59,334 bases of DNA from an uncultured Gemmatimonadota bacterium (GTDB lineage: Bacteria > Gemmatimonadota > Gemmatimonadetes > Palauibacterales > KS3-K002): positions 1 to 59,334 of the forward strand of contig CAYGCC010000179.1 of the NCBI GenBank assembly GCA_964348165.1, written 5' to 3'. The notes beneath the pieces were generated by a model. That model worked only from the letters and a program-made list of their open reading frames with translations. It had not been told where the DNA came from and did no database searches. Made by a program: the position numbers and the translations under genes. This document shows, one piece after another, positions 18,405-41,817 of the stretch. Within the stretch, counting starts at the first letter, position 1. Every line of letters begins with the position of its first letter.

Positions 18405-18897
18405 ATGAGCCAGATAAATTGTAAGAAACAATACCCGATTCGAGCCGTTTCCCGGCGGACCCGCCTCTCTCGCGACGTCTTGCGGGCCTGGCAACACCGG
18501 TACGGAGCGATGCACCCTGAGCGGAGCCCGGGTGGGCAGAGGTTTTACTCGGACGCGGACATCGAGCGGCTCCATTTGATCTGCCAGGCCCTCGACGCGG
18601 GCCGCCGAATCGGCCAGGTCGCTGACTTGACGACCGAGGAGCTCGAGCGGCTCGTGGGCGAGGATCGGCGAGCGGAGGCAGAACTGGATGGTGGCGGCGC
18701 CCGGCGAGCTGATCGAACGCGTCGTCGCACCGCTGATGACCCGGATCGGCGACCTGTGGTGGCGCAATCAGCTAACGCCGGGGCACGAGCGTCTGGCCAC
18801 CACTGTGGTGCGTCGCACCCTCGACGACATCCGGGCTACTGTCCAGAGCGATGCGGGGCCCGTCATGGTCGTGGCCACGCCCTCTGGTCAGCCCTGA
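18405..18897 (+). pseudogene. decayed CarH/LitR-type MerR regulator (frameshifted, B12-binding Rossmann domain missing)
   Basis: The MerR HTH (YPIRAVSRRTRLSRDVLRAWQHRYGAMHPERSPGGQRFYSDADIERL) is in frame 3. The homology to the intact paralog at 27289-28236 continues in frame 1 from about 18690 (LIERVVAPLMTRIGDLWW..VVATPSGQP). It stops at 18897, exactly where the paralog continues RHEFG. Confidence 0.7.
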
Positions 18898-18945
18898 GAT
18901 CCGCGCTAGAGCGGATCGGCAGCATCGAACCGCGCGAGGTCGGCC

Positions 18946-20442: not shown

Positions 20443-22118
20443 TGAGCAGCTTCGTTTCGCGCCTCGCAGAGCACGGGTCGGAAGTCAATGGCCGGCGCTG
20501 GATCTATGTGCCCTACGACCAGCTCTCGGACCGCATCGGTCCGTTGGCCGAGGCAGAGCCGGGCGATGTCGGCATCGTCATGATCGAGAGCAGTTGGAAA
20601 GGCGAGTGGCGACCGTACCACAAACAGAAACTGGCCTTGATCCTTGCCAACCAGCGGCACTTCGCCCTGGAGCAGGCGAAGCGGGGTGTGGCCGTTCGAT
20701 ACGAGACGACCGATCAGCCGTATAGCGAAGCGCTGGCACGGGTCATCGCGGAGCTGGGCCCGCTGCAGGCGATGGAGCCGGCGGAGCGCGAGTTGCGTCT
20801 CGATCTCCAGCCGCTCGTCGACGACGGGGTTCTCAGACTGCTCGACCATGAGGGTTGGCTCACCACCACCGAGCAGTTCGAAGTCAGCCAGAAGCGCGGA
20901 CCCCCTTGGCGGATGGATGCCTTCTACCGTCACGTCCGCAGGGAGACCGGCATCTTGATTCGAGACGGTAAGCCGGTGGGAGGAAAGTACAGCTTCGACG
21001 CCGAGAATCGTGAGCGCTGGGACGGTGAGCCGGCAGCACCCGCCGCACCAACGTTCCCGGTAGACGAAGTGAAAGAGGAGGTCGCCGACCTCATCCGCGA
21101 CCGCTTCGATCATCATCCGGGTGAACTCGACCTCCCCTCGCTACCGGCCACGGCAAAGGATGCGCGGAAGCTGTGGGATTGGGCAAAGAAGGATTGCATG
21201 GCCAACTTCGGTCCGTTCGAGGACGCGATGTCGACGCGATCGAGAAGCCTCTTTCATACACGGATGTCGGCTCTGCTCAACCTACACCGGCTGCTCCCAG
21301 CCCAGGTCGTCGCTGAGGCGCTCGAGTTGGACATTCCCCTCGCCAGCAAGGAGGGATTTGTCCGCCAGATTCTGGGCTGGCGCGAGTTCGTCCGCCATGT
21401 CCACCGCGCGACCGACGGCTTTCGAGAGCTGCCAGGCCGCGAGGTCACGGTGGCGGAGGCACCCGGCGATGGTGGGTATGAGCGCTGGTCGGGTGAGCGC
21501 TGGTCAGGAAGCGCGAAGCTGGACTGTCTCGACGGAGGGGCCGCACCCTCCGAGCTGACGAGTTCCGACCCGCTGCCGCCGGCTTACTGGGGCGAGACCT
21601 CCGGCCTGCGCTGCCTCGATCATGTCGTGGCCGACGTCTGGGCGAGCGCTTATGGGCACCACATCACACGCCTCATGGTGCTGTCCAACATCGCGACCCT
21701 GATCGACACGTCGCCGCGGGAGCTAACGGACTGGTTCTGGGTGGCGTACGCCGATGCCTACGACTGGGTGGTCGAGCCGAACGTTCTGGGTATGGGCAGC
21801 TTCGCGGTCGGCGAGCTGATGACGACGAAGCCCTACGTGTCGGGCGCGGCATACATCAATCGGATGAGCGACTACTGTGCGGAATGTGAGTTTGATCCCA
21901 AGAGCGATTGCCCCATCACGAGCCTTTACTGGGCCTTTCTCTCACGCCATGAGAAGCAGCTAAACGACAACCCGCGCCTCCGCCTGCCGCTCGCCAATCT
22001 GCGCCGTCGTGGCAAGAAGCGTCAAAACCACGACGCCAGCGTTTTCCGCTGGGTTCGCGACACGCTGAGCGCGGGTGGAATCTTACACCCCGTGGACGCC
22101 CCCAACGAAGACGATTGA
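20442..22118 (+). CDS. cryptochrome/photolyase family protein, FeS-BCP type (PhrB/CryB-like, COG3046)
   Basis: Start trimmed to ATG 20442, which overlaps the phr stop (TGATG). N-terminus RRWIYVPYDQLSD. It has a Cys cluster typical of [4Fe-4S] bacterial cryptochrome/(6-4) photolyases: LRCLDHV and SDYCAECEFDPKSDCPITSLYWAFL. Confidence 0.82.
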   Translation: MSSFVSRLAEHGSEVNGRRWIYVPYDQLSDRIGPLAEAEPGDVGIVMIESSWKGEWRPYHKQKLALILANQRHFALEQAKRGVAVRYETTDQPYSEALARVIAELGPLQAMEPAERELRLDLQPLVDDGVLRLLDHEGWLTTTEQFEVSQKRGPPWRMDAFYRHVRRETGILIRDGKPVGGKYSFDAENRERWDGEPAAPAAPTFPVDEVKEEVADLIRDRFDHHPGELDLPSLPATAKDARKLWDWAKKDCMANFGPFEDAMSTRSRSLFHTRMSALLNLHRLLPAQVVAEALELDIPLASKEGFVRQILGWREFVRHVHRATDGFRELPGREVTVAEAPGDGGYERWSGERWSGSAKLDCLDGGAAPSELTSSDPLPPAYWGETSGLRCLDHVVADVWASAYGHHITRLMVLSNIATLIDTSPRELTDWFWVAYADAYDWVVEPNVLGMGSFAVGELMTTKPYVSGAAYINRMSDYCAECEFDPKSDCPITSLYWAFLSRHEKQLNDNPRLRLPLANLRRRGKKRQNHDASVFRWVRDTLSAGGILHPVDAPNEDD

Positions 22119-22122
22119 CGCG

Positions 22123-23532
22123 ATGCCAGTGTTCACGCGACGTGTTCTCGTCGCCGCGCCCGCGACGCACGTATTCGATTGGCATGCGCGACCCGGCGCG
22201 CTCGAGCGTCTCATACCCCCCTGGGAAGACATCCGCGTGCTAAGGCGGACGGGCGGCATCGAGGACGGCGCACGTACGGTCATCCAGATGAGAAAGGGCC
22301 CGTTCAAGCTTCGCTGGGTGGCTGTCCACAGAGACTTCGTGCCCGGCCGCCAATTCGTGGATGAGCAAGTCAGTGGACCCTTCGCCACCTGGCAACACGC
22401 GCATCGGGTCACCCCTGAGGGTCACGACCAGGCGTACCTCGAAGACCAGATCACTTACCGTCTTCCCGGCGGCAAGCTCGGTCAATGGCTCGCGGGTCCC
22501 AAAGTGCAGAGTGATCTCCACCGCACCTTCCGCTTTCGCCACCGACGCACCACCGACGATCTGAGCCGGCACCTCGCGCAGGCGCACAGGCCTCGTCTTC
22601 ACGTGGCGATCAGCGGCGCTTCCGGTCTCATCGGGCGGAACCTTGCCGCGTTTCTCACTACGGGGGGCCACACGGTGACGACGCTGGTGCGTCGTTCCCC
22701 GCGACACGGCCGTCGGGAAGCGGGTTGGGACCCTTACGCCGGATTGATCGACACTGTCGCTCTCGAAGGCACGGACGCTGTGATCCACCTGTCCGGGCGA
22801 AGCGTCTCCGCCTGGCGCTGGACGGAATCGGTGAAACGCGAGATCTGGGACAGCCGCGTAAAGACCACTCGGTTTCTCGCCGAATCGCTCGCTCGACTCG
22901 ATCGACCGCCCCGCGCCCTGATCACCGCCTCGGCGGTCGGCTGTTACGGGGACCGAGGCGAAGAGGCGGTCGACGAAGACAGTTCGCCCGGCGCCGGCTT
23001 CCTCGCGGAGCTCTGCCGAGAGTGGGAGGCCGCAACAGAACCGGCTCGGGCGGCCGGCATTCGCGTCGTCAATCTGCGGGTCGGCCTGGTCATCACCGCG
23101 GCCGGCGGCGTTCTGCCGCGCTTGCTGCTTCCCTTCGGCCTGGGGCTCGGCGGCGTGCTGGGCAGCGGGCGACAGTACATGAGTTGGATCGCCCTCGACG
23201 ACCTGCTCGGCGCCGTTCTGCATTTGCTGTATGCGGACGAACTCGACGGTCCCGTCAATGCCGTGTCGCCCCAGCCGCTCACCAACCGGGGGTTCACACG
23301 CACCCTCGGGGCGGTTCTCCGCCGTCCGACCGTTCTTCCCATTCCAGCATTCGTCCTCAGGACGCTGTTCGGAGAGATGGGTCAGGCACTGTTCCTCGAC
23401 GGGGCTCGGGTCGAGCCACGCCGCCTCCAGGGGCACCCGGAATTTCGCTACCTCTACCCGACGCTCGAGAGCGCGCTGCGACACGAGCTGGGCCTTTATA
23501 CTCAGGACGAAGGCGATGGCGGAGGGGCATAG
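22123..23532 (+). CDS. SRPBCC domain fused to TIGR01777/YfcH-like NAD-dependent epimerase (DUF1731)
   Basis: Start at ATG 22123, 5 nt after the previous stop. N-terminal SRPBCC-like part (VLVAAPATHVFDWHARPGALERLIPPW). Then ISGASGLIGRNLAAFLTTGGHTVTTLVRR and the C-terminal DUF1731-like part. Confidence 0.78.
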   Translation: MPVFTRRVLVAAPATHVFDWHARPGALERLIPPWEDIRVLRRTGGIEDGARTVIQMRKGPFKLRWVAVHRDFVPGRQFVDEQVSGPFATWQHAHRVTPEGHDQAYLEDQITYRLPGGKLGQWLAGPKVQSDLHRTFRFRHRRTTDDLSRHLAQAHRPRLHVAISGASGLIGRNLAAFLTTGGHTVTTLVRRSPRHGRREAGWDPYAGLIDTVALEGTDAVIHLSGRSVSAWRWTESVKREIWDSRVKTTRFLAESLARLDRPPRALITASAVGCYGDRGEEAVDEDSSPGAGFLAELCREWEAATEPARAAGIRVVNLRVGLVITAAGGVLPRLLLPFGLGLGGVLGSGRQYMSWIALDDLLGAVLHLLYADELDGPVNAVSPQPLTNRGFTRTLGAVLRRPTVLPIPAFVLRTLFGEMGQALFLDGARVEPRRLQGHPEFRYLYPTLESALRHELGLYTQDEGDGGGA

Positions 23533-24325
23533 CATCCTCCGCTGGGCGCGAGCGCTGCGGCCCCTCGTCGGGCAGCCGCTGGTCCAGGTGGACCTTCCCA
23601 AACGTTGGGCCGACCGGGCGGCCGGCTTGCCAGGCCAACATCTTCGCGAGATCCAGACCCACGGTAAGCACCTGCTTCTACACCTGTCGGAAGGGTTGTC
23701 GCTTCATTGTCACGCCATGATGTACGGATCATGGCAGTTCGGGACGCCGGCGATGAAACTGCGCAAGCCGGAGAAGAACGTGCGGCTGCGGCTTCGTACC
23801 GCACGTCACGAGGCGGTGTTCTTCAACGGCCCCGTCGTTGAGCTGCTGAGCGCAGAAGAGCTGCAGGCGCACAAGCGACTCTCCGCCCTCGGCCCGGACA
23901 TCCTTCACCCCGACTTCGAGCGTGCGGAGGCTTGGGAGCGATTACGTCGTGCAAAGGAGCGCCCGATCGGCGATGCGTTGCTCGATCAGCGGATCGTGGC
24001 CGGGATCGGCAACATCTTCAAATCCGAGGGTCTGTTCCTGGCTGGCCTCGATCCACGGGTGCCCGTGAAGCTCACAAGCCAAAGTCAGGTCGAGCAGTTA
24101 TGGGACCGCTTGATCCCCGTGATGCTCGAGAACTCGCGCCGCTCCGGACCAGTGGTCACCTTGCACCGCAGCCTCCGGCGCGGCGGTGAGCGCTACTGGG
24201 CCTACCGCAGGACCGGCCGTCCCTGCTTTCGCTGCAACGCTATGATCGAGATGGTACGTCAGGGCGAGCTACGAAGAACCACTTATTTCTGCAGTCGCTG
24301 TCAGGGTAACCGAGGCGTCTTGTAG
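23516..24325 (+). CDS. Fpg/Nei family DNA glycosylase (Nei-like) with Ala at position 2
   Basis: ATG 23516 overlaps the previous gene by 17 nt. N-terminus MAEGHSI (the family normally has MPEGH). Also HGKHLLLH, an H2TH region GIGNIFKSEGLFLAGLDP, and a C-terminal zinc finger CFRCNAMIEMVRQGELRRTTYFCSRCQ. Confidence 0.83.
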   Translation: MAEGHSILRWARALRPLVGQPLVQVDLPKRWADRAAGLPGQHLREIQTHGKHLLLHLSEGLSLHCHAMMYGSWQFGTPAMKLRKPEKNVRLRLRTARHEAVFFNGPVVELLSAEELQAHKRLSALGPDILHPDFERAEAWERLRRAKERPIGDALLDQRIVAGIGNIFKSEGLFLAGLDPRVPVKLTSQSQVEQLWDRLIPVMLENSRRSGPVVTLHRSLRRGGERYWAYRRTGRPCFRCNAMIEMVRQGELRRTTYFCSRCQGNRGVL

Positions 24326-24379
24326 GGGCGGCCCGCTCTCATCTTCGACCGGATACCGCTATGAGAGGCTTATTCTTGT

Positions 24380-24401
24380 CGGCTCTTAATCGGCTCTTAA
24401 T
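24380..24401. repeat. perfect 11-bp tandem duplication (CGGCTCTTAAT x2)
   Basis: Read directly from the sequence. It lies in the AT-rich convergent gap between nei and the SDR-DUF2867 gene. A related GGCTTATT lies 10 nt upstream. Confidence 0.9.
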
Positions 24402-24426
24402 AAGATATATGTGTCAGCGGTCCCAG

Positions 24427-26031
24427 CTAAACTGCCGTCCGCACCTTGGCGGCGCCGATCGAGTTTTCATCGCTCTCCGCCTCCATCGCCTTGACGATCC
24501 CGCGCAGCATCCCGGCAAAGACGAGCTGGTGCAGGGGGTAGAGTCCATACCAATAAAGGTTACCGAAAAGTCCGACAGGGTCGAAGATCGCAGTTTGCCG
24601 CACCGTGCTCCCGTCGCCCTCCTCCGTGACCTCGAACTGCAGCCAGGCGCGCCCCGGCAGCTTCATCTCCGCCGAAAGGCGAAGTAGCTCGTCCGGACTG
24701 AAACGCTCGACGCGCCAGAAATCCACCGTCGCGCCGGGGGCGAGGTGTTCGGCGTCACGGCGGCCGCGCCGCGAACCCACACCGCCGAACCAGAGGTCGA
24801 TAAAGCCCCGGAGGCGCCACAACCAATCGGCGAAGTACCAACCAACTTCTCCACCTAGCCTCCGAATTGGCCGGAACGCCTGCCGGGGCTCGTAAGGAAC
24901 CCATACGGACCGGGAATCGACGATGCGGGAACCGAATTTCTCGCCTCCCCAACGTTGCTGGTCGCCGGAAGAGAGGGCATCGGACCAGCGGGTCTCCGCG
25001 AATTCCTGATCTTCATTGACCAGCGCGCGCTGAATGGCCTCGCGGATACCGCGGGGGCGTATCTGGAAGGTCCGCAAAGCCGCGTCGTCCTCCACCACCG
25101 TCGGATTGCGAACGCTGTCGATGAGATCCTTGCCCACCCGAGCGTAGACGGGCGTGACGAGCCCCAACCAGAGGCTCGAGAGTCGAGGCGTGAGCACGGG
25201 CACGGGGATCATCAGCCGTCGCAACCCACGCTGGTGAGCGTACTCCTTCATGATATCCATGTAGGAGACCTGATCCGCGCCACCGATCTCGAACACCGCG
25301 CTACCCCCGGCCGCGACATCGAGCGCCTCGACCAGGTAATCGATCAGGTCTTCCACGGCGAGCGGCTGCGCTGGTACCCTGACCCAGTGGGGTGTAACCA
25401 TCACCGGCAGCTTCTCAACCAGCGAACGGATCATCTCGAAAGACAAGCTTCCCGAGCCGATGATGATCGAAGCGCGAAACTCCAGAGTGAGCACCCCCGA
25501 CTCACGAAGGATTCGACCGACTTCTTGCCGGCTTCGCAGGTGTTGCGACAGACCGGGCTCACGACCCAGTCCGCCCAGGTAGATAATCCGTTTCACCCCG
25601 GCTGCCTTGGCCGCACGGGCGAAGTTCTCCGCAGCGCGCCGGTCCTTCTCCTCGAAATCCTCCTTGGATCCCATCGAATGGATCAGGTAGTAGGCGACAT
25701 CTACACCGGCGAGCGCCCGCTGCAGCGACGCGAAGTCGGCCGCATCGCCGCCCACGACCTCCGTGTCCCCCTCCACCCGCGGTTCCAGAAACTCGGGCCG
25801 CCGCGCCAGGCAGCGCAGGCGGACGCCGCGCCGACCTAGCGCCCGCATCAGGCGGCCACCGACGTAGCCGCTCGCCCCGGTCAGCAATACGCGCTGGCGC
25901 CCACGCCCCTCCGGCTCGCCGTCTGAACGAGCCGACCCAGCCGGCCCTCCCTGGACGGAGCGCCCGCAGCTGGTGTTCGACCCGGCGGGGGCCGGAGCGA
26001 TTTGCTGGTCGTTGTTGGCGGCTTTGGCCAT
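24427..26031 (-). CDS. SDR/NmrA-like oxidoreductase fused to DUF2867
   Basis: 534-aa ORF. VLLTGASGYVGGRLMRAL, AYYLIHSMGS and IIYLGGLG form the N-terminal Rossmann part. The C-terminal about 180 aa resembles DUF2867. This architecture commonly neighbours photolyase genes. Confidence 0.78.
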   Translation of the reverse strand: MAKAANNDQQIAPAPAGSNTSCGRSVQGGPAGSARSDGEPEGRGRQRVLLTGASGYVGGRLMRALGRRGVRLRCLARRPEFLEPRVEGDTEVVGGDAADFASLQRALAGVDVAYYLIHSMGSKEDFEEKDRRAAENFARAAKAAGVKRIIYLGGLGREPGLSQHLRSRQEVGRILRESGVLTLEFRASIIIGSGSLSFEMIRSLVEKLPVMVTPHWVRVPAQPLAVEDLIDYLVEALDVAAGGSAVFEIGGADQVSYMDIMKEYAHQRGLRRLMIPVPVLTPRLSSLWLGLVTPVYARVGKDLIDSVRNPTVVEDDAALRTFQIRPRGIREAIQRALVNEDQEFAETRWSDALSSGDQQRWGGEKFGSRIVDSRSVWVPYEPRQAFRPIRRLGGEVGWYFADWLWRLRGFIDLWFGGVGSRRGRRDAEHLAPGATVDFWRVERFSPDELLRLSAEMKLPGRAWLQFEVTEEGDGSTVRQTAIFDPVGLFGNLYWYGLYPLHQLVFAGMLRGIVKAMEAESDENSIGAAKVRTAV

Positions 26032-26108
26032 GCTTGTGGGCCCATCCCGGTTGCGCTTAAGCTGGCGGGGTGGCGCTCAACGCGGCGCGCCACCCGCACT
26101 TGTCGTAT

Positions 26109-26152
26109 AACGTAGCCTGGACAAGATTTACTGTCAATATAATGTCTAATTA
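26109..26152 (-). promoter_or_regulatory. sigma70-like promoter plus CarH-type 11-bp repeats / inverted repeat (candidate operator) for the SDR-DUF2867 gene
   Basis: Minus strand reads TTGACA(26137-26132)-N17-TACGTT(26114-26109), and TTGACA-N8-TGTCCA(26123-26118). Tandem 11-mers TAATTAGACAT (26152-26142) and TATATTGACAG (26141-26131) both fit nAnnTnnACAn. Confidence 0.55.
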
Positions 26153-26263
26153 TTAACTTTACACATTTTGCATACGCCCGCCGGCGCCCTCAGATTCGCC
26201 GACAGCGGGCGCTGTCAGGTCTCGAGCCCCATATCTCGGGCTCAGGAATAACGGAGGTGGTGG

Positions 26264-27235
26264 TTGATCGACAAGCAGGTTAAGCCCGTCGTAGTGCTGA
26301 GCCGGTGCCTGGAGTTAGAGCCTGTTCGCTACAACGCCCAGGTGATCCCTTACGACTTCGTGCGCGAGCTGGAGCCCTGGGTGACGTTCGTCCCCGTCTG
26401 TCCAGAGCTGGAAATTGGCCTGGGGGTGCCTCGCGAGCCCGTCCGGATCGTCGCGGTCGCCGGTGAGGCGCGGCTGCTGCAGCCGGCGACGGACCGGGAC
26501 GTCACCGCTGAGATGCGAGATTTCGCCGAACGGTTCCTGGGTTCCCTGGACACGGTGGACGGCTTCATCCTCAAGAATCGATCGCCGTCCTGCGGCATCT
26601 CGGACGTGAAGCACTATCAAGGACTCGACAAGTCGGCATCGTCCACGCGTGGCGCCGGTCTATTTGGCAGGCGGGTGCTGGACCGCTACGGCGGGCTGGC
26701 GATCGAGGACGAGGGGCGCCTACGCAACTATCGGATTCGCGAGCATTTCCTCACCAAGCTCTTTAGCCTGGCCCGGTTCCGCATCCTCAAGAGGTCGGGA
26801 TCGTTAGGCGAGCTGGTTCGTTTTCACTCGGTGAACAAGTTTCTACTGATGGCCTACAACCAGAAAGAGATGCGCACGCTGGGGCGAATTGTTGCCAATC
26901 ACGAGAAGCGCCCCTTCGCCCGCCTGATCGACGAGTATGAGCAGCACTTCCAGGCGGCGCTGGGGCGGGCGCCTCGCTACACGTCGGTCGTCAACGTGCT
27001 GCAACACGCCTCGGGTTACTTTTCCGACCAGCTGTACGCCAGTGAGAAGGCTTTCTTCCAGAAGTCTCTTGAGCGCTACCGAAACGGGCGAACGCCGGTG
27101 AGCGCCGTAACCTCCATCCTCAGAGCCTGGATCGTCCGCTTCGATCAGGACTACTTGATGCCGCAGACGTTCTTCGACCCTTATCCGGAAGCTCTGATGA
27201 GCGTCAGTGATTCCGGCAAGGGAAGAGATCTCTGA
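26264..27235 (+). CDS. DUF523 (TudS-like) plus DUF1722 (YbgA-like) fusion protein
   Basis: TTG start with a GGAGGT 5 nt upstream. N-terminal half has the three DUF523 Cys (LSRCLE, PVCPELEIGLGVPREP, NRSPSCGI). C-terminal half is YbgA/DUF1722-like (HFLTKLF..LVRFHSVNKFLLMAYN). E. coli ybgA precedes phr. Confidence 0.83.
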   Translation: MIDKQVKPVVVLSRCLELEPVRYNAQVIPYDFVRELEPWVTFVPVCPELEIGLGVPREPVRIVAVAGEARLLQPATDRDVTAEMRDFAERFLGSLDTVDGFILKNRSPSCGISDVKHYQGLDKSASSTRGAGLFGRRVLDRYGGLAIEDEGRLRNYRIREHFLTKLFSLARFRILKRSGSLGELVRFHSVNKFLLMAYNQKEMRTLGRIVANHEKRPFARLIDEYEQHFQAALGRAPRYTSVVNVLQHASGYFSDQLYASEKAFFQKSLERYRNGRTPVSAVTSILRAWIVRFDQDYLMPQTFFDPYPEALMSVSDSGKGRDL

Positions 27236-27288
27236 TGGAAGTCGGATAGGGTCAGAGCGCCTTGAGTCTGCGGCCGCCAAGCGAGGGG

Positions 27289-28236
27289 TCATTTCAGCTT
27301 GGAAAGAGCGGCACGTAGATCACCCAGGTCGGAAAGCTCGATCGCTTCGATCTCGTCCAGAACCCTACGATAAGTGGGCGCGGCCGCACCCCCCGCCAGA
27401 ATCGGCACCGCCGGGGGCAGCTTGAGCCGCAGCTCGCGCAGCTCGTTCTCGAGATCGGCGTCCCCCTCCGGAAAGACGAGGCTGATGGCGACGGCCTCGG
27501 CACCCGTGTCACGGACCGCGGCCGCCAGATCGTCAGCCGGCAGGTTGGGGCCGAGATAAGTGACCCGCCACCCCTCCGCCGCCGCGATTACTGCGACAAA
27601 CAACGCACCGAACTCGTGCCTCTGACCGGCGGGTGTGGCCACCACTAGATTGGCAGCGACGCTGGGAGACTCCGTCGCCTCGAGCACCTTGCCCACGACA
27701 CGCAGGAGCAATGCCGACGTCAGGTGCTCGTGCGAAGGCCGCACGCCACCCTCGCTCCAGCGCTCGCCGACCGTCCGCATCAACGGAGCCGCGACCTGCT
27801 CGATCAGAACCTGAGCACTGAGGACGGCCATGGCGCGGTTGAGCACCCGTTCGAGTTCGCGGCCGTCGAGGCGCTCCGCCGCGGCCAGCGCCGCCTTGAG
27901 GTGCATCTCGGCCGCCTCGGCATCGTCCCCCAGTGCCTGGGGTCCAACCACGGCCTCTTCGCGCTCATCCTCGTGCACTAGCGCCGCGAGCTCTTTGCTA
28001 CCCAGAGTCGCGATCTGGCTGATGCGACGGCCGGCGCGGCTGGCGCGGCGCAGCAGACGCAGCCGCTCGATATCATCGTCCGAGTAAAGGCGCCGCCCGC
28101 CTTCCGAGCGACCGGGCTCGACGACCGAATACCGCTTCTCCCAGGCGCGCAAGACGTCGGCGCTGAGGCCGGTTCGGCGGGCGACGACCTGGATCGGGTG
28201 GCGCTTGCGGCTGCTGTCGAACTTGTCTGTCATCAT
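27289..28236 (-). CDS. CarH/LitR family MerR regulator with B12-binding domain (putative AdoCbl photoreceptor)
   Basis: Start trimmed to ATG 28236. MerR HTH IQVVARRTGLSADVLRAWEKRYSVVEPGRSEGGRRLYSDDDIERL. W-x9-E-H motif (WSEGGVRPSHEH). B12 His-loop VVATPAGQRHEFGALFV plus a Rossmann part. Confidence 0.88.
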   Translation of the reverse strand: MMTDKFDSSRKRHPIQVVARRTGLSADVLRAWEKRYSVVEPGRSEGGRRLYSDDDIERLRLLRRASRAGRRISQIATLGSKELAALVHEDEREEAVVGPQALGDDAEAAEMHLKAALAAAERLDGRELERVLNRAMAVLSAQVLIEQVAAPLMRTVGERWSEGGVRPSHEHLTSALLLRVVGKVLEATESPSVAANLVVATPAGQRHEFGALFVAVIAAAEGWRVTYLGPNLPADDLAAAVRDTGAEAVAISLVFPEGDADLENELRELRLKLPPAVPILAGGAAAPTYRRVLDEIEAIELSDLGDLRAALSKLK

Positions 28237-28248
28237 TTGTCGAACCGA

Positions 28249-28278
28249 AGTGTAGCACAAACGCGCGACAGGCGTCAA
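28249..28278 (-). promoter_or_regulatory. candidate promoter of the CarH/LitR gene giving a near-leaderless mRNA
   Basis: Minus strand reads TTGACG(28278-28273)-N18-TACACT(28254-28249). Only 12 nt lie between the -10 and ATG 28236, and there is no Shine-Dalgarno. Confidence 0.5.
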
Positions 28279-28452
28279 CCCTGCACGGCGCACCGGCCCC
28301 GCCCCAGCGATTTAGGGTGAAAACAGGGGGGAGCCGGTGACAAGCTCGCTCTCCCCGCAAGTGTTATCTTCGGGTGCTTCCCGAGCGTGCGCGCTCGATT
28401 CGGCGCTTGAAGAGGGTCGGTGCGCGAGCTGTCGGCCCCAAAGGAGGAGACG

Positions 28453-29883
<1,431 letters not shown>

Positions 29884-34416: not shown

Positions 34417-35348
34417 TTACGTGAGGGCGGCGACTATTCTCTCTCCGTGAAAGCGGCCGTTCTCGATGAAGAGCTTGTTGGCATCAAAGCCGGCCGCCAA
34501 CACGCCGGCGATGAACCCGGCACGTTCGTCTCCATCGTCTCCGCATCGTGCCGCGGCACGCCGTCCGGCTCGCCTCGCAGCGTCACATGACCTGAATCGA
34601 TCTCCGTGACTCGCGTCCGGAAGCGGGCGGCGATGGAGCCCTCACGAACGCGATTCTCAATGTCGGGGCGCACCCACGGCTTCACCCCCGGATCGAAGTT
34701 CTCCAGAAAGTGCACCAGCGTGACACGGGCGCCGGCGCGCCAGAGGTCGAGCGCGGCCTCGACGGCCGAGTTACCGCCACCGACGACCAGACAATCCTGA
34801 TCGAAATAACGGTGAGCTTCCCGGAAGTAGTGAGTCACTTTCGAAAGATCCTCCCTGTTTACACCCAGCAGGTTAAGGGTGTCGAAGTAACCGGTCGCCA
34901 CCACAACGTATTTCGCTCGGTAGACCGATTCTTTTCCAACCCCGGTACGGGTCGAGACGCTGAAGTCGTTTGGGGCACCTTCGACCCCCGTGACCTCCTC
35001 GTATTGGCGCACCGGCAGCCGAAAGTGCTGAGCCACCCGACGGTAGTACGTGAGGGCCTCGGCTCGTGAGGGCTTGTCGCGCGCGCAGACGAACGGAACG
35101 CCGCCCACCTCCAGGTTTTCCGGGGTGCTGAAGAACGTCATGCCGATCGGATAGCCCACGATGGCGTTGACGATGCAGCCCCGATCGAAGACCACGCTGC
35201 GCAATCCGGCCCTGGACGCTGCCACCCCAACCGCCAGACCGCAGGGGCCGGCGCCGACGATGGCGAGATCGAGTGTGTGATTACGGATATCGTCCACTTC
35301 ATTCCGAGTTAGGCGTGCATTTCGGCGTGCATTTCGGCGATCCTTCAC
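34417..35348 (-). pseudogene. ypdA-like (bacillithiol-disulfide-reductase family) flavoprotein with internal deletion and frameshift
   Basis: LDLAIVGAGPCGLAVG, MTFFSTPENLE and LVVGGGNSAVEAALDL are YpdA/TrxR-like. About 30 codons are missing between VTLRGE and PDGVPRHDAETMETNVPG. The conserved C-terminus FIAGVLAAGFDANKLFIENGRFHGERIVAALT is only readable after a 1-nt shift near 34513-34522. Confidence 0.68.
35312..35335. repeat. perfect 12-bp tandem duplication (GGCGTGCATTTC x2)
   Basis: Read directly from the sequence. It encodes the RRNARRNA stretch in the N-terminal extension or 5' region of the ypdA-like gene. Confidence 0.9.
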
Positions 35349-36145: not shown

Positions 36146-38368
36146 TCAAGCCGGATAATCGAGGGCCTCGGGGATCGTCACGGTGGTCAGCGCCTGCGCC
36201 GCCCGGTCCTTCGCCAGCCGATAGCCGGTGAGGCAGCCGTCCAGCTTGCCGCGACGAAGGTTGAACGGCTCGTACCCGTCGAATCGCACGCAGGGGCCAC
36301 GTTTGGACGGCAGCGCGCCTTCCTCGTCGAGCGCGTCGACGGCGCAGGAGCAGATACCCGGCATCACGCTCTCCAGCACCACCAGCTCGCGCCTATTGTA
36401 AACACGCTCTCCTTGCTCGTCCCACGACGGATGGCGGTTGTACCCGAACACCAGCCCCGAACAGATGCGAGCCACCTCGCCGGCAGCGACGGCCGCCTGA
36501 ACGTGGCAAAGGTCGGTGAAGAAGCGAACCAGCCCCGGAAGCCGTTCCGTCAGCGTCGTGTTGTTTACCCCCTCGGTTTCCAGCTCGATCAAATCCAGGA
36601 TCTGGTATCGGGAGGCGAGCAGCCAGCAGAGAGCATCCGCCATGGTGAAGGTCACCCCTTGGCGGTGTCCTTTATATAGAGGCTGCCCGTCGGCGTCCTT
36701 CGACCCCAGCAAGTGCCCCAGCGTCCAGATCCACAGCTCCATGGCCGAGGCCAGCGCGCAGGCGCCCGAGCCGGGACGGCGACCGGCGATGCGCCGCATC
36801 TCGCGGACCCACTCCTCGAACTGGGCGAGAAAGATCGGATTCGTCATCGTAACGCTCAGCTGACGCCGCTGTACCGCTTCCGGCCCTTCGTACGTCGCCT
36901 CGAACTGCGCATCCATCCATTTTTGCGGTAGGAAGCCGGGGCAATCCTCGGTGATGCCGTAGCCACCCATCAGGCTGACGGCCTCGCGCATCATGTTGGC
37001 CCCGTGTCCGGTGTTCCAGAGCTTCACTGCCGGGCTGAGCACGTTGGCCAAAGCATCTTTGACCAGATACACGAGCAACGCATTCCGCTCCAGCTCCTCG
37101 AAGCGGTTCTGATCGCGCTCCGACGGCGGCTTCGCCACCAGCCGTAAATACTCGACCGCTTCATCCGCCCACTTCGCCCGCGCACGAAGCGCCCGCCGCT
37201 TTCCAGGGATCTCGGACTCGGCGAAGATCTCAGCGCGACGGTGATCCAACGGATCGAGCTCGTCGAACAGACGCGCCGCCGCGAAGCCCAGTGAGGCGCT
37301 CGCTTCGCCGGTGGCCCAGACGTCCACTAACCGGTGAAGCGCGTCCTCCTTCAGCTGCAGACCCAGTTCGCGACGCGGACTATCGGAAACATCGGAGGCA
37401 CCGCCGCGGAAGCGGCCGCGCTGGTAGCGGATGATCGGTTCCACAGCGGAGAGCAGCTTGGCGGCCGTCATTAAACCGACGGTCACTCGAGTTCGCTTGA
37501 AAACCGCGTCGATAACCTGCGAGTGCGTGTAGTTGGGTACGATCACACCGTCTTTCACCTTATAGCCGCCGACGATCCGGCTGGCCGGGACGTCGAGGCT
37601 GAAGATCGGGTCGCTGGACGACGAGAGCTGATGAGCCAGCTTCCGGGTGGGCGTCCCGCGATCGAAGGTCCCGGGGTCCGTCTCCTCCAGGACGATGATG
37701 CAGCTCGTTTTGATCCGCTCGTCCGCCGTGTCCACCGCCACCGACACGAAGCTGGCAAAGGCCATGTTGGTGATGAAACGGCCGCGCTTCTCGACGTGCA
37801 GGATCGGCTCTTCCCCGTCCTTCCACTCCTTCACCGTTACCTGGCCGCCCAGCACACCGGTGTCGACTCCCACGTGGGGGATTGGCTCGGTCAGAGCGAA
37901 GGCGCCCCGGCCGGGCTTTCGGTCCTCGCCCGGCTGGGGAGGTGCCGAGCGCCTCATGTAGCTCTCCCGTTGCTCCGGAGTCCCCGTCTCGTGGATCGGC
38001 GCCAGGCCCAGGTGACCGGCCACGGCTGCGGTGGCGGCTCCGCCATCCACCCAGGCCAGCTCCAGAGCGGCCAGCGCCAGCGCCAGATTCTTGGGGCCCT
38101 CCAGAGCCCCGCCGTACTCCCGATCGAGCAAAACGGAGCTGATCCCCGCCTCATCGAAGGCCTCGAGCAGCGCCGCCTTCTCCGGCGTCCACTCGTGGGT
38201 GTGGCGCCCGCCGTCCGCCACCAGCCGCGCCACCGGTCCCCGGGCGACCGATCTCACCGACTGGACGAGCGACTGCAAATCAGGTCGGGCACGGAACCGC
38301 CACATGATTTGGCGGGCCTCGTCTCCGGGGAGCGTGCTCAGACTCGGCTCAAGCTGTGACCTGCTCAT
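36146..38368 (-). CDS. acyl-CoA dehydrogenase family protein, large form with C-terminal extension
   Basis: 740-aa ORF. ACAD N-terminal and middle domains (GAFALTEPIPHVGVDTG.., FITNMAFASF) and an ACAD C-terminal helical part (EATYEGPEAVQRRQL). It is followed by about 230 extra residues with several Cys. Confidence 0.78.
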   Translation of the reverse strand: MSRSQLEPSLSTLPGDEARQIMWRFRARPDLQSLVQSVRSVARGPVARLVADGGRHTHEWTPEKAALLEAFDEAGISSVLLDREYGGALEGPKNLALALAALELAWVDGGAATAAVAGHLGLAPIHETGTPEQRESYMRRSAPPQPGEDRKPGRGAFALTEPIPHVGVDTGVLGGQVTVKEWKDGEEPILHVEKRGRFITNMAFASFVSVAVDTADERIKTSCIIVLEETDPGTFDRGTPTRKLAHQLSSSSDPIFSLDVPASRIVGGYKVKDGVIVPNYTHSQVIDAVFKRTRVTVGLMTAAKLLSAVEPIIRYQRGRFRGGASDVSDSPRRELGLQLKEDALHRLVDVWATGEASASLGFAAARLFDELDPLDHRRAEIFAESEIPGKRRALRARAKWADEAVEYLRLVAKPPSERDQNRFEELERNALLVYLVKDALANVLSPAVKLWNTGHGANMMREAVSLMGGYGITEDCPGFLPQKWMDAQFEATYEGPEAVQRRQLSVTMTNPIFLAQFEEWVREMRRIAGRRPGSGACALASAMELWIWTLGHLLGSKDADGQPLYKGHRQGVTFTMADALCWLLASRYQILDLIELETEGVNNTTLTERLPGLVRFFTDLCHVQAAVAAGEVARICSGLVFGYNRHPSWDEQGERVYNRRELVVLESVMPGICSCAVDALDEEGALPSKRGPCVRFDGYEPFNLRRGKLDGCLTGYRLAKDRAAQALTTVTIPEALDYPA

Positions 38369-38537
38369 GACGGATTACCCCCTCGGGCGGTTGGCGCTCG
38401 TGGAGCGTCAGCGATGGCCCGACGTGAGCCAGCGCCGCACCCAGTGGTGTGAGGCCAACCTCGACAACCTGCGAACCGTGGGCGTGGGCCGTGGATTCGC
38501 TTCTTTGCAGGAGGGTAACCCAGTCGGGGCTGCCGGG

Positions 38538-38810
38538 CTACCCGCCCTCGGCAAGCTCGACCGGGCTCGTGTGCTTGCAGCAGTCGAGCAGCATCTCCAG
38601 CCGCTCGGGGTTGAAGCCGATGATAAAGTCGTTGCCGTGGGCGACCACCGGCACACCGACACCGCCGCTGAGCTTCCGCCACTCCCTCAGCTCGAAGACG
38701 TCTTTGCTGATGTCCGCCTCGTCGAACTCGCAACCGTGTTCAGTTAGCCAATCCTTGACCATTTTGCAGTAGGGTCAAGTCGGTGTGGTGTATACTTTGA
38801 TCGTCGCCAT
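38538..38810 (-). CDS. glutaredoxin/NrdH-like protein with in-frame TGA at the first active-site Cys (probable selenoprotein, U-P-Y-C)
   Basis: Minus-strand reading from ATG 38810 gives MATIKVYTTPT-TGA(38777-38775)-PYCKMVKDWLTEHGCEFDEADISKD..GVPVV..IIGFNPERL. A GGGAGAG SD ends 5 nt before ATG 38810. The track ORF (38762) starts after the active site. Confidence 0.72.
38746..38760 (-). other. candidate SECIS-like hairpin downstream of the UGA
   Basis: RNA GGUCAA-GGA-UUGGCU, 14-28 nt 3' of the UGA, with a G-rich apical loop. It can be enclosed by UGCAA/UUGCG pairing. It was folded by eye only. Confidence 0.3.
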
Positions 38811-38883
38811 ATCGGCTCTCCCGTTCGTGTCGCTGGTGGAGTACTTATCGTTGGATAACATTGAGTCTGACCCTTAGTCAGCC

Positions 38884-41817
38884 ATGACGTCAAGCCCGGA
38901 AGAGCTCAGACCGTTCCCGCAGCAGCGGGCCGCCATCGAAGCGCCGCTGGGGCCGACGCTCGTCCTGGCGGGTCCCGGCGCCGGCAAGACGTTCTGCCTG
39001 ATTCGCCGCGTCCAGCACCTGATCGAGGCGCGGGACTTCGCACCCGAACACATCTGCGCGGTTACCTTCACCAACAAAGCCGCGGAAGAGGTCACGGCGC
39101 GTCTGCACCGCCGGCTGGGCGATCGCGCCGACCGTGTGACCCGCGGCACCCTTCACGCCCTCTGCCTGGGGATCCTCCGCGAGCACCCGGAAGCCGCTGG
39201 CCTGCGGCGCGGCTTCGGGGTGGCCGACGAGCTGTACCAGCGGCTGCTGTTGCGGCGCCTGGGGGTCCAGCCGGCGCGGCGCCGCGGCCACTTGCTCAAC
39301 CTCTTCGGCCGGAGCCGGCTGCAAGGTTACACCCTCACCGAGGGCGACGACGCGCTGCTCGACAGCTACCTGTCGATGCTGCGTCAGAAGAACCTGGTGG
39401 ACTTCGATGATATCATCGCGCTCACCGACCGGTTGTTCCATGATCATCCCGCGATCGCCGACGCGGTAGCGACACGCTGGCGCTACCTGCTGGTCGACGA
39501 AGCGCAGGATCTGGACGCCGCGCAGTACCGCATTCTCAAGCGGCTGGTTCAAGCTCACCGCAACATCTTCGCGGTGGGCGACGACGAGCAGTCGATTTTC
39601 TCCTGGCGTGGCTCGGACCCACGCATACTCTGGCGTTATCAAACGGACTTCGAGATCGAACATTCCGTCATCCTTGACCGAAACTTGCGTTGCAGCCGGC
39701 AGATCTTTAAGGCGGCGCGGCGACTGATGCGGGAAAACCCCGAGCTGTTCGACAAGAAGATCGAGGCGGAGCGCGATTCCGAGTTCGACGTCGAGTGCTA
39801 CATCTTCGAAGACGAGGCCGCGGAGGCCGATTGGCTGCTCAGAAGCATCGACGCCGACCGTGAGGCCAATGGCTGCGACTGGGGCGATTACGCCGTCCTC
39901 TACCGCAAGCACGACGTCGGACGCGAGCTGGAAAAGCGCTTCGTGGCCGCCGGCGTCCCCTGCCGGCTGGCGCGGGGCCGCGCGCTCCTGGACGATCGAG
40001 TGATCGCTTACGTGGTCGCCTCGTTGCGAGTGATGACCCGGCCCGAAGACCCCGTGGCGCTGGAGGCCTTCGCCCAGCGTCTGCTGCCGCGCGAGCTGAT
40101 GGCCGAGGTTCGTACGCTGGCCGCCGGCCGCGACGGTGATCTGTTAGGGGCGATGCGCGCCTACGCGCGCCACCACCCCAAAGGGCACCCGGACAGCAAG
40201 AAGGCCTGGCGCTTCGTCTATCATGTGGAGAACCTGCGGGCCGTCTACGCGTCGCACGCCACACTGCCCGAACTGATCGACGAGCTGCTTTCCCAGCGGG
40301 TGCGGCGCTACGAGAACCGCCTGGAGGAACGGTACGACGAGCTGGAGGACCCTGAGGTCTTTCCCGGCGCGCTCGAACTGGCGCAACGCCTGACGGCGGT
40401 AGTAACCGGCGGAGGATCGGTGTACCTGGCCGCGCAGGGGGGCATCGAGGTCGCGGCCCGCGGGATGCTCCACGCCGTAGAGCTGCCGGCGCGCTGCGAT
40501 TACCTGACGCCCGCTGTGAAGCCTCGCCCCGAGGACCTGGTGCTGGGAAGCGATACGCTGCGAGGACGGCCCCTGGCCACCACCCTGTTCAAGGCGCTCC
40601 AACTCATCCACGCCCGCGGCTTCCGCGACGTGCTCCGGGATTACGTGACCTTCGACGTGGAAACCACCGACCTCGACCCGGCCGGCTGCGAGATCATCGA
40701 GCTGGGCGCCGCCAAAGTCATCGGCGGCGAAGTCGTGGACACCTTCCGTTCCTTCGTGCGCTGTCAGAAGCCGATCTCACTCAAGGCGACCGAGAAGCAC
40801 GGTTACACCCAGCAAGATCTGCAGGGGGCACCGAGCCTCGAAGAGGTGTGGCCGCGATTCGTTGAATTCGCGCGGGGCCATGTCCTGGTCGCCCACAACG
40901 GCCACGAGTTCGACGTGCCCGTGCTGCGGCGTAACGTCGAGAGCTTCGCCAGCGTCGACGACCTGGTCTTCTTCGACACCCTGCCTCTGGCCCGCTCGCT
41001 CTTCCACGAGAGCGCCCGCCTGGAAGACCTGGCCGTACGCTTCGGAATCGCCGCGGGCGTCGCCCACCATGCCCTGGATGACGCGGTGACCCTGGCGCAT
41101 GTGTTCCAGGCCCTGGGCGATCACAAGCGCGCCCGGGCCCGTAAGGCGGCGCTGGTTAACCTTCTCGATCACCTGGCCATCGGCCTGGCGCTGGAGCCAC
41201 CGAGGCGTCTACAGCCCGAGGACCAGTTGCTGCTGGAACTCGCCGTGTCCTTCGCGCTGGGACGCTACAGCGACTGTCTGGAATTCTATGCGACGGAACG
41301 AGATCGAATCTCCGGCCCGGCGCCGCATCCAGAGGAGTTGATCGCGCGGTTGGGCGGCCGCCAGCTCATGGAGAGGATCCGGACCGAGCGTCGCCCCTCC
41401 GAGCGCTATCCTGCCGCGGTGGCCCGCCTCCATACCCTGGTCGAGGCCAGCCAGGCGGACGACCTGGCGGAGTCCGTTCGCCGACTTCTCGAGCGCGTCG
41501 CGCTTTCCACCTCGGAAGGCGTCGAGGCCGATCCGCACCGCGTCAACCTGCTCACCCTGCACTCGACCAAAGGGCTCGAGTTCTCGCGCGTCTACCTGGT
41601 CGGCGTCGAGGATCATCAGATCCCCGGCTACTACGCCGTGGTCGACAACCGCCAGGATGAGATCCAGGAGGCGCGGCGTCTGCTTTACGTGGGGATGACG
41701 AGGGCGAAGGACCGCTTGATCCTCACGCGCACCGTTCGCCGGCACGGCCGCGACTCCGGTGGAAGCACCTTCCTGAACGAGATTGGCCTCACGCCTACGG
41801 CTGCAGGTTCCCCTTAG
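38884..41817 (+). CDS. UvrD/PcrA-type SF1 helicase with an embedded DnaQ-like DEDDh 3'-5' exonuclease domain
   Basis: 977-aa ORF. Walker A LAGPGAGKTFCL, TFTNKAAEE, LLVDEAQDL, AVGDDEQSIFSWRG. Then the exonuclease motifs FDVETTDL, LVAHNGHEFDVPVL and HHALDDAV (about 40639-41118). Then helicase motifs V-VI: TLHSTKGLEF, YVGMTRAKDRL. Confidence 0.9.
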   Translation: MTSSPEELRPFPQQRAAIEAPLGPTLVLAGPGAGKTFCLIRRVQHLIEARDFAPEHICAVTFTNKAAEEVTARLHRRLGDRADRVTRGTLHALCLGILREHPEAAGLRRGFGVADELYQRLLLRRLGVQPARRRGHLLNLFGRSRLQGYTLTEGDDALLDSYLSMLRQKNLVDFDDIIALTDRLFHDHPAIADAVATRWRYLLVDEAQDLDAAQYRILKRLVQAHRNIFAVGDDEQSIFSWRGSDPRILWRYQTDFEIEHSVILDRNLRCSRQIFKAARRLMRENPELFDKKIEAERDSEFDVECYIFEDEAAEADWLLRSIDADREANGCDWGDYAVLYRKHDVGRELEKRFVAAGVPCRLARGRALLDDRVIAYVVASLRVMTRPEDPVALEAFAQRLLPRELMAEVRTLAAGRDGDLLGAMRAYARHHPKGHPDSKKAWRFVYHVENLRAVYASHATLPELIDELLSQRVRRYENRLEERYDELEDPEVFPGALELAQRLTAVVTGGGSVYLAAQGGIEVAARGMLHAVELPARCDYLTPAVKPRPEDLVLGSDTLRGRPLATTLFKALQLIHARGFRDVLRDYVTFDVETTDLDPAGCEIIELGAAKVIGGEVVDTFRSFVRCQKPISLKATEKHGYTQQDLQGAPSLEEVWPRFVEFARGHVLVAHNGHEFDVPVLRRNVESFASVDDLVFFDTLPLARSLFHESARLEDLAVRFGIAAGVAHHALDDAVTLAHVFQALGDHKRARARKAALVNLLDHLAIGLALEPPRRLQPEDQLLLELAVSFALGRYSDCLEFYATERDRISGPAPHPEELIARLGGRQLMERIRTERRPSERYPAAVARLHTLVEASQADDLAESVRRLLERVALSTSEGVEADPHRVNLLTLHSTKGLEFSRVYLVGVEDHQIPGYYAVVDNRQDEIQEARRLLYVGMTRAKDRLILTRTVRRHGRDSGGSTFLNEIGLTPTAAGSP

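Follow-up and report, generated by a model that had tools for sequence, protein, structure and literature searches.

Selenocysteine (Sec)-containing glutaredoxins with a UxxC active site form an established and experimentally verified family. Ten such sequences were found in the Sargasso Sea survey and listed as a prokaryotic selenoprotein family (PMC1088965, also its Table 3), and the family (PF00462, UxxC; representative WP_010943784.1) is classed as experimentally verified in a 2026 review (PMC13188914 Table 1). Among its members, cGrx1 of Clostridium oremlandii is a native U(C)PXC selenoprotein that was crystallized as a variant having Cys instead of Sec, and reduction of selenoprotein MsrA is its proposed role (PMC7642778). 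In E. coli, the minimal SECIS (selenocysteine insertion sequence) is a stem-loop that occupies nt 15-31 and lies 11 nt from the UGA, with a G23/U24 loop and a bulged U (PMC8659212), and models of bacterial SECIS elements require a small apical loop with a G (PMC1088965). Here we describe a glutaredoxin-like gene on the minus strand of a 59,334-nt contig from an uncultured Gemmatimonadota bacterium (CAYGCC010000179.1; this whole stretch is referred to as the window). Comparison with its orthologues indicates that positions 38810-38538 are very probably a functional Sec-encoding gene, whose product would be a 90-residue glutaredoxin/NrdH-like thiol oxidoreductase with a U-P-Y-C active site.

Direct translation of the minus strand from 38810 to 38538 yields 90 residues, which run from MATIKVYTTPT through an in-frame stop into PYCKMVKDWL and end in AEGG before the terminal stop (in full, MATIKVYTTPT-stop-PYCKMVKDWLTEHGCEFDEADISKDVFELREWRKLSGGVGVPVVAHGNDFIIGFNPERLEMLLDCCKHTSPVELAEGG-stop). 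With Cys put in for the internal stop, residues 4-63 match the Pfam Glutaredoxin family PF00462 (E 7.6e-15, 55.3 bits, cut-off 22.9), a match in which the column of the TGA falls on the first Cys of CxxC. The mechanical open reading frame (ORF) list contains only 38538..38762 (-), a 74-aa ORF beginning at an internal ATG. A GGGAGAG sequence lies 5 nt upstream of ATG 38810, where most orthologues have a GGAGG-type site (upstream 25 nt), and a purine-rich site is absent from the 12 nt preceding ATG 38762 (CCCTACTGCAAA). An earlier sequence-only reading of the window had pointed to the TGA at the first-Cys position of CPYC, the lone 74-aa ORF in the list, the ribosome-binding site ahead of ATG 38810 but not of Met 38762, and a GGUCAA-GGA-UUGGCU hairpin 3' of the UGA. 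All four are borne out by the Pfam alignment, the ORF list and direct reading, the hairpin being present at 38760-38746. Its overall proposal, a 90-aa U-P-Y-C selenoprotein missed or truncated by annotation, is supported by the codon alternation, the selection pattern, the hairpin and the absence of alternative starts.

A protein-collection search returned 49 relatives, in which two length classes can be distinguished. Relatives of ~86-101 residues have CxxC, mostly CPYC, in all sequences read there. Many others are 72-75 residues long, start exactly at the Met17 position (M/V/L-[AV]-K-D-W-L) and lack the active site, some of them being named 'hypothetical protein'; this short class looked as if an in-frame stop had truncated the gene systematically. 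Scanning genomes, with each species represented by one, then gave 67 loci, nearly all from Gemmatimonadota metagenome-assembled genomes (MAGs) and several from complete chromosomes. The window and the 63 loci readable from the first codon make up the orthologue set (n=64). Translated from the aligned start, most loci read M-A-x-I-[KR]-V-Y-T-T-P-T-stop-P-Y-C, and all 64 are in register within T-P-T-[U/C]-P/S-Y-C. Codon 12 is TGA in 51/64 and TGC or TGT in 13/64, with Cys as the sole amino acid at this column among the non-TGA orthologues. Complete genomes with the TGA form include CP070823.1, CP070722.1, CP070815.1, CP070812.1 and OZ250165.1. The TGA form is likewise present in CP070666.1, OZ252253.1, OZ252244.1 and the CAYGAJ01 assembly, which is the closest to the window, and old Cys forms occur, for example, in CAVSPJ01, CAVOPE01 and CAVVTW01. 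The observation is not a matter of chance, because the window's TGA, its flanks and its hairpin recur in 50 other species-level genomes. In a neighbor-joining tree, which is weak for so short a protein, the Cys forms occupy at least three separate positions among the Sec forms, a distribution that suggests repeated Sec/Cys switches. Separately, the orthologue in one MAG (L063:1368-1559) aligns from residue 23 onwards, and its upstream frame has two stops and no beta-1/UPYC; it may be a truly degraded copy or lie on a chimeric contig.

The hairpin core begins 15 nt downstream of the UGA, within the coding sequence. As in bacterial SECIS models, the UGA is closely followed on its 3' side by a stem-loop whose small apical loop contains a G. 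In all 51 TGA forms, the sequence of codons 18-22 is G(C/T)C AAG GA(T) TGG CT, corresponding to G(C/U)CAA-GG(A/C)-UUGGC in the RNA, and their third positions are frozen: C at codon 18 in 51/51, AAG at codon 19 in 51/51 and GAT at codon 20 in 96%, compared with 40-60% conservation at neighboring third positions and a genome GC content of ~64%. Synonymous divergence (pS) over codons 18-22 is 0.24 in the Sec forms, as compared with 0.64 in the Cys forms and 0.62 over the remaining codons, and synonymous change at the hairpin is suppressed in the TGA forms only. The constraint on the hairpin in these forms also fixes the amino acid: Asp20 is present in 47/51 Sec forms, and A, E, G, S or D is found in the Cys forms. 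An alignment of the 51 sequences shows hardly any variation in the five core pairs, pair 20-30 being C-G in 37 sequences and U-G in 10. The window has a single copy of the core pattern GYCAAGGMTTGGC, where shuffles predict 0 occurrences, and in the orthologous loci the 13-nt pattern was found solely within this gene.

The Cys forms carry traces of the same element. In two Cys homologues, P0001 and P0002 (L070:359-634 and L075:1501-1776), whose proteins are 75-80% identical to that of the window, codon 12 is TGC and the exact 13-nt core is kept; in a third, P0003 (L073:1185-1463), which is similarly close to the window protein, the core is lost (GCGAAGGACTGGC), these three Cys forms nearest the Sec forms all coming from short-read assemblies. 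By comparison, none of the 13 genome Cys forms has an intact core stem, and 3-4 of the 5 core pairs are left. The hairpins of P0001 and P0002 look like 'fossil SECIS' elements marking recent Sec-to-Cys replacement, and the overall pattern is what one would expect of a hairpin that serves the UGA and decays after the UGA is replaced.

Our comparison with the E. coli fdhF SECIS reveals a common plan, closely matched in position, with distinct details. Both are hairpins inside the coding sequence, spanning nt 15/17-33/36 here and nt 15-31 in fdhF, with the loop G at 23-25, and the stem carries a bulged U in many of the Gemmatimonadota relatives as it does in E. coli. Where the fdhF element has a G23-U24 loop, the Gemmatimonadota hairpin has GGA, or AGGAU should the last A-U pair open, and in sequences with a bulged U this lies 3' (nt 32), not 5' as U17 does in fdhF. 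Furthermore, the conserved core here comprises 13 nt, the primary sequence of which is invariant across the clade.

The protein adopts a glutaredoxin fold. The AlphaFold (AF2) model of P0001, 80% identical to the window protein, has a predicted local distance difference test (pLDDT) score of 87 and shows the glutaredoxin topology beta1-alpha1-beta2-alpha2-beta3-beta4-alpha3, with U/C-P-Y-C at the start of alpha-1. The top PDB matches are A. fulgidus Grx-1 (3IC4), 7C10 ('Dithiol cGrx1') and NrdH-redoxins. The structure 7C10 is among the two best structural matches (template modelling score, TM, 0.90; root-mean-square deviation, rmsd, 1.2-1.3 A; 37-38% identity) and is also the best PDB sequence match (phmmer E 1e-11). 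Like C. oremlandii cGrx1 (7C10/7C12/7C13; PMC7642778), the window protein consists of a single glutaredoxin-fold domain of ~85-90 residues, with predicted Sec in place of the first Cys of U-P-x-C right after beta-1 and with the cis-Pro loop and the G-F motif conserved. The two differ in sequence (~35-38% identity), in the active site (UPYC here and UPHC in cGrx1) and in phylum (Gemmatimonadota and Clostridia), and selenoprotein MsrA, the partner of cGrx1, was not seen adjoining the window gene. In addition, the Gemmatimonadota family has Cys27, a C-terminal Cys(-Cys) at 76/77 and an acidic tail, all of which cGrx1 lacks. Cys27 and Cys76/77 are conserved in Sec and Cys forms alike. Judging from the topology, both are expected at the far end of the domain from the active site; their possible roles are a second redox site, a metal site and a structural disulfide.

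No NCBIfam model of glutaredoxin type reaches its curated cut-off with the window protein. The top-scoring one is the YruB-family model TIGR02196, matched full-length (1-74 of 74) with 71.5 bits vs a cut-off of 88.55, and the protein is therefore a near relative of the YruB family rather than a member by the NCBI criterion. The scores are 51.8 bits vs 85.75 for NrdH-redoxin (TIGR02194) and 39.1 bits vs 90 for GRX_bact/Grx3 (TIGR02181, glutathione-dependent glutaredoxin). Among the Uxx-star models, NF041212 gives 57.2 vs 66, NF041211 45.2 vs 100, NF041114 29.3 vs 72 and NF047338 35.9 vs 97; the predicted Sec lies here in a UxxC site at residue 12, with 78 residues after it. Structures of NrdH-redoxins (4HS1, 4F2I, 4FIW and 1H75) are among the top fold matches. 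Where NrdH has C-[MV]-Q-C, however, the window protein has UPYC, and ribonucleotide reductase genes are not adjacent. Several features of a Sec-containing glutaredoxin are found together, namely a PF00462 match above threshold, UGA at the first Cys of CxxC, Cys homologues, conservation on both sides of the UGA and a stem-loop of bacterial SECIS type. A tentative further proposal, which we consider possible but rather doubtful, is that these genes constitute a distinct Gemmatimonadota-wide Sec-glutaredoxin-like subfamily outside the curated models, defined by Cys27 and Cys76/77, a small 13-nt SECIS with a GGA loop and an RNA-dictated A/V-K-D-W-L segment. The extra cysteines, remote from U-P-Y-C, would suggest a second redox/metal site or a regulatory disulfide, and the invariance of the 13-nt SECIS might stem from SelB recognizing it in a lineage-specific way.

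Several observations weigh against Sec insertion at this locus. At the RNA level, the hairpin of the window is short, with 7 bp including two G-U pairs, and 38780-38700, folded as a single sequence, does no better than shuffled versions of it (z -0.97), its minimum-free-energy structure pairing the UGA itself with GGUCAAG instead of forming the hairpin. The case for the hairpin rests on the orthologue comparison, because the single-sequence fold is unremarkable. The core pairs are conserved but not covarying, which is also compatible with a purely sequence-specific signal. Rfam gave no family match at gathering thresholds over the whole window, and at E<=10 on 38500-38900 it gave a chance HgcG match and nothing else. 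The lower stem, which reaches nt 15-36 in relatives with or without a bulged U32, is moderately supported. It occurs in two registers, contiguous or with U32 bulged, and shows compensatory combinations (CUC/GAG, CUG/CAG, GUG/CAC and GAG/UUC); a single fixed register was rejected, each of the two fitting part of the sequences. The mean lower-stem extension is 2.26 bp vs 1.46 +/- 0.10 with the 5' and 3' halves re-paired (0/5000 shuffles reach it), and the covariation scores of the two registers are 0.104 vs 0.075 (0/500 shuffles) and 0.125 vs 0.090 (2/500), although these shuffle controls ignore relatedness and kinship can inflate the statistics. Each extension pair forms in ~20-70% of the sequences, and no single register holds throughout. 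At the level of the Sec machinery, tblastn with the E. coli proteins (NC_000913) did not find SelA, SelB or SelD in the 59-kb window and the 67 loci (+/-3 kb); ARAGORN detected no tRNA in the 59-kb window and no tRNA-Sec in 60 loci; and nothing selenium-related was present within +/-10 kb in four further loci (L076-L079). Likewise, Pfam and NCBIfam annotation of ~40 window genes identified no selenium genes.

The absence of Sec machinery from the window and flanks searched is one of two points that favor selenium-free read-through of the UGA, in which a near-cognate tRNA or suppressor would insert Trp, Cys or Arg and the hairpin would act as a generic stimulator. The other is the nucleotide following the TGA, which is C in 50/51 Sec forms, UGA-C being a leaky stop context. 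This explanation is unlikely, however, since the UGA falls exactly at the catalytic Cys, where Cys is the only amino acid found among orthologues, and Trp or Arg in place of the nucleophile would inactivate the enzyme. A UGA at a catalytic Cys with Cys homologues is the classic selenoprotein signature in selenoproteome searches (PMC1088965). Moreover, the position and loop G of the hairpin fit bacterial SECIS rules, and the closest characterized homologue, cGrx1, is a true selenoprotein. Sec as the inserted residue is favored because of the combination of U/C alternation at the catalytic Cys, the SECIS-like element and the analogy with cGrx1. Reassignment of the TGA codon was considered as well and excluded, TGA being an ordinary stop in the window and the lineage: it terminates 17/37 larger window genes and is the terminal stop of this same glutaredoxin-like gene in 25/63 orthologues.

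A Cys-type glutaredoxin hit by a TGC-to-TGA nonsense mutation, its full-length product lost, would be a decaying pseudogene, and such a change takes one base; annotation also treats the locus as truncated, with 72-75-aa database products. Decay is nonetheless very improbable and effectively refuted by conservation, as the TGA is kept in 51 species-level genomes, with proteins down to ~59% identity with that of the window, the genes carry no further lesions, and a Sec-form-specific RNA element is maintained. In the Sec forms, codons 2-11 have a pS of 0.65, a nonsynonymous divergence (pN) of 0.17 and a pN/pS of 0.25, which is 0.145 for codons 4-11, and codons 8-11 vary almost solely at third positions. 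The pN/pS of codons 23-75 is 0.27, in the same regime, and the 11 codons upstream of the TGA are under purifying selection like the remaining gene. Among the checks that the sequence-only reading had put forward, UGA/Cys alternation among orthologues (51 vs 13) and a stem-loop conserved in orthologous loci, specifically in the UGA forms, were both confirmed, and of the decay upstream of the TGA that it had named as a refutation there was no sign (pN/pS 0.15-0.25 vs 0.27 downstream); the proposed RNA folding, by comparison, gave no support by itself, and the hairpin drew its support from orthologue conservation.

The real product might instead be the 74-residue protein starting at Met17 and lacking CxxC, the upstream 11 codons being an unrelated leader peptide or untranslated. 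ATG 38762 does exist in the window, and gene callers pick it. However, ATG, GTG or TTG is found at codons 16-17 in merely 8/51 Sec forms, codon 17 in the others being CTG, CTC, GAT, ACG, CAA and others. In Sec forms without a start at codons 16-17, the first canonical start is at codon 27-55 or absent, and 7 Sec forms have no canonical start before codon 60. The 74-aa product cannot be the conserved gene, because most TGA forms have no start there. In addition, ATG 38762 has no ribosome-binding site, the upstream codons encode a canonical beta-1 and T-P-T with a protein-type substitution pattern, and, as judged from the model, a glutaredoxin deprived of beta-1 and of its active site would neither fold nor function; we regard this alternative as having hardly any likelihood. 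A sequencing or assembly error at the TGA is practically negligible and already refuted, given the identical codon in 50 independent assemblies from different projects, including several complete chromosomes.

With Sec insertion, the gene would be expressed as follows. Translation would start at ATG 38810 behind the GGGAGAG ribosome-binding site. At the UGA, the G(U/C)CAA-GGA-UUGGC hairpin of the mRNA would hold SelB with Sec-tRNA(Sec), Sec would be inserted, and the ribosome would go on to the TAG at 38540-38538. The protein would most likely function as a disulfide reductase, with Sec12 attacking and Cys15 resolving the intermediate into a selenenylsulfide, as in cGrx1. The sequence G-F-x-P-[ED]-[RK]-L after beta-4 resembles the NrdH motif S-G-F-R-P-D, and by analogy the reductant would then be a flavoenzyme and not glutathione. 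In this regard, it is conceivable that a YpdA-like flavoprotein encoded 3 kb downstream is the reductant of the Sec-glutaredoxin, or its presence might be a sign that the lineage has a low-molecular-weight thiol system. The neighboring genes do not define the substrate of the glutaredoxin-like protein.

The features of the locus and of other parts of the window are collected in Table 1. The divergent arrangement of the helicase and glutaredoxin genes is kept in 23 related loci, and the helicase also occurs in L076/L077. An acyl-CoA-dehydrogenase-like gene lies downstream of the glutaredoxin gene in 10 loci, and other genes intervene in more distant relatives. In L076-L079, the acyl-CoA-dehydrogenase-like gene is followed by electron-transfer flavoprotein (ETF)-ubiquinone oxidoreductase (ETF-QO) and ETF genes; at L076:13887-19851 and L078:6910-12894, these are the oxidoreductase and two ETF subunits. 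In the window, a small membrane protein, an ABM monooxygenase and the YpdA-like reductase follow instead. The acyl-CoA-dehydrogenase-like proteins of 740-744 aa have recognized acyl-CoA dehydrogenase (ACAD) domains at the N- and C-terminal ends only, and the long middle part between them has no domain assigned. A promoter/terminator scan of 38300-39000 found none, and no further convincing selenoprotein candidate emerged among other in-frame TGA codons with coding-like flanks across the window.

Table 1. Positions of the glutaredoxin-like gene, its RNA element and other features of the window (feature, position, strand, evidence or remark)
Feature	Position	Strand	Evidence or remark
Coding sequence (CDS), predicted Sec-containing glutaredoxin-like protein (M-A-T-I-K-V-Y-T-T-P-T-U-P-Y-C...)	38538..38810	-	translation; PF00462; full-length orthologues in 63 loci
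GGGAGAG, Shine-Dalgarno-like, 5 nt before ATG 38810	38816..38822	-	direct reading
In-frame TGA, codon 12, predicted Sec codon replacing first (nucleophilic) Cys of CPYC	38775..38777	-	51/64 orthologues TGA
Codon 15 TGC, resolving Cys of U-P-Y-C	38766..38768	-	Cys in 64/64
Internal ATG (codon 17), start of the miscalled 74-aa ORF, not conserved as a start	38760..38762	-	ORF list; orthologue codons
Hairpin core GUCAA-GGA-UUGGC	38747..38759	-	nt 19-31 from U of UGA; codons 18-22 (V-K-D-W-L)
Hairpin loop G24 G25 A26	38754-38752	-	U of UGA counted as 1
Extended helix in the window, core + G18-U32 + U17-A33, 7 bp, nt 17-33	38745..38761	-	pair counts
Codon 27, extra conserved Cys before beta-2	38730..38732	-	Cys in 62/64
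Codons 52-54 G-V-P, cis-proline loop of the thioredoxin fold	38649..38657	-	invariant G52 V53 P54
Codons 76-77, Cys-Cys pair, C-terminal end of alpha-3	38580..38585	-	at least one Cys in 64/64; position from model
Terminal TAG	38540-38538	-	translation
UvrD/PcrA-type helicase, 977 aa, inserted DEDD (RNase T/DnaQ-like) 3'-5' exonuclease domain, residues ~586-747	38884..41817	+	domain matches
Acyl-CoA-dehydrogenase-like protein, 740 aa, downstream same-strand neighbor	36146..38368	-	domain matches
YpdA-family putative bacillithiol-disulfide reductase (flavoprotein)	34434-35348	-	318.6 bits, just under cut-off 339.9; 3 kb downstream of the glutaredoxin gene
Photolyase-related protein (DPRP)	20316-22118		
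Fpg-type glycosylase ORF	23231-24325		
DUF1722/2-thiouracil-desulfurase-like protein	26264-27235		
MerR + B12-binding (CarH/LitR-like) regulator	27289-28293		
Metallo-beta-lactamase-fold + rhodanese fusion, persulfide-dioxygenase/sulfurtransferase type	28420-29883	+	domain matches

Elsewhere in the window, 20316-28293 is a light- and DNA-damage-related cluster, and the metallo-beta-lactamase-fold/rhodanese fusion beyond it is sulfur- rather than selenium-related, as far as domain matches go. The region 18767-20316 contains no convincing gene by codon-position GC; Pfam gives no match for a 498-aa ORF at 18946-20442 (+), which shares sequence with two short ORFs on the minus strand.

Nothing specific on Sec use in Gemmatimonadota was found in the literature, and the phylum is unnamed in the main text of the selenoproteome papers PMC13188914, PMC5029168, PMC9312934 and PMC13326102. 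A 2026 database holds 57,630 bacterial selenoproteins from 88 lineages (PMC13326102) and may well already contain these Gemmatimonadota genes. The finding changes no concept, as Sec-glutaredoxins and the coding constraints imposed by SECIS elements are already established; the window gene adds a probable Gemmatimonadota member to the UxxC family. For annotation, the gain is that a database fragment becomes a conserved predicted selenoprotein in ~50 species-level Gemmatimonadota genomes, and the invariant 13-nt hairpin could seed searches for their other selenoproteins. The locus also offers a natural series for Sec-to-Cys replacement and SECIS erosion, from Sec forms through recent Cys forms with a fossil SECIS to old Cys forms without one. 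A TGA at this locus would mark those of these bacteria, which live in sediment and soil, that decode Sec, and, if the distinct subfamily holds true, Sec use would be documented as a common trait of the phylum.

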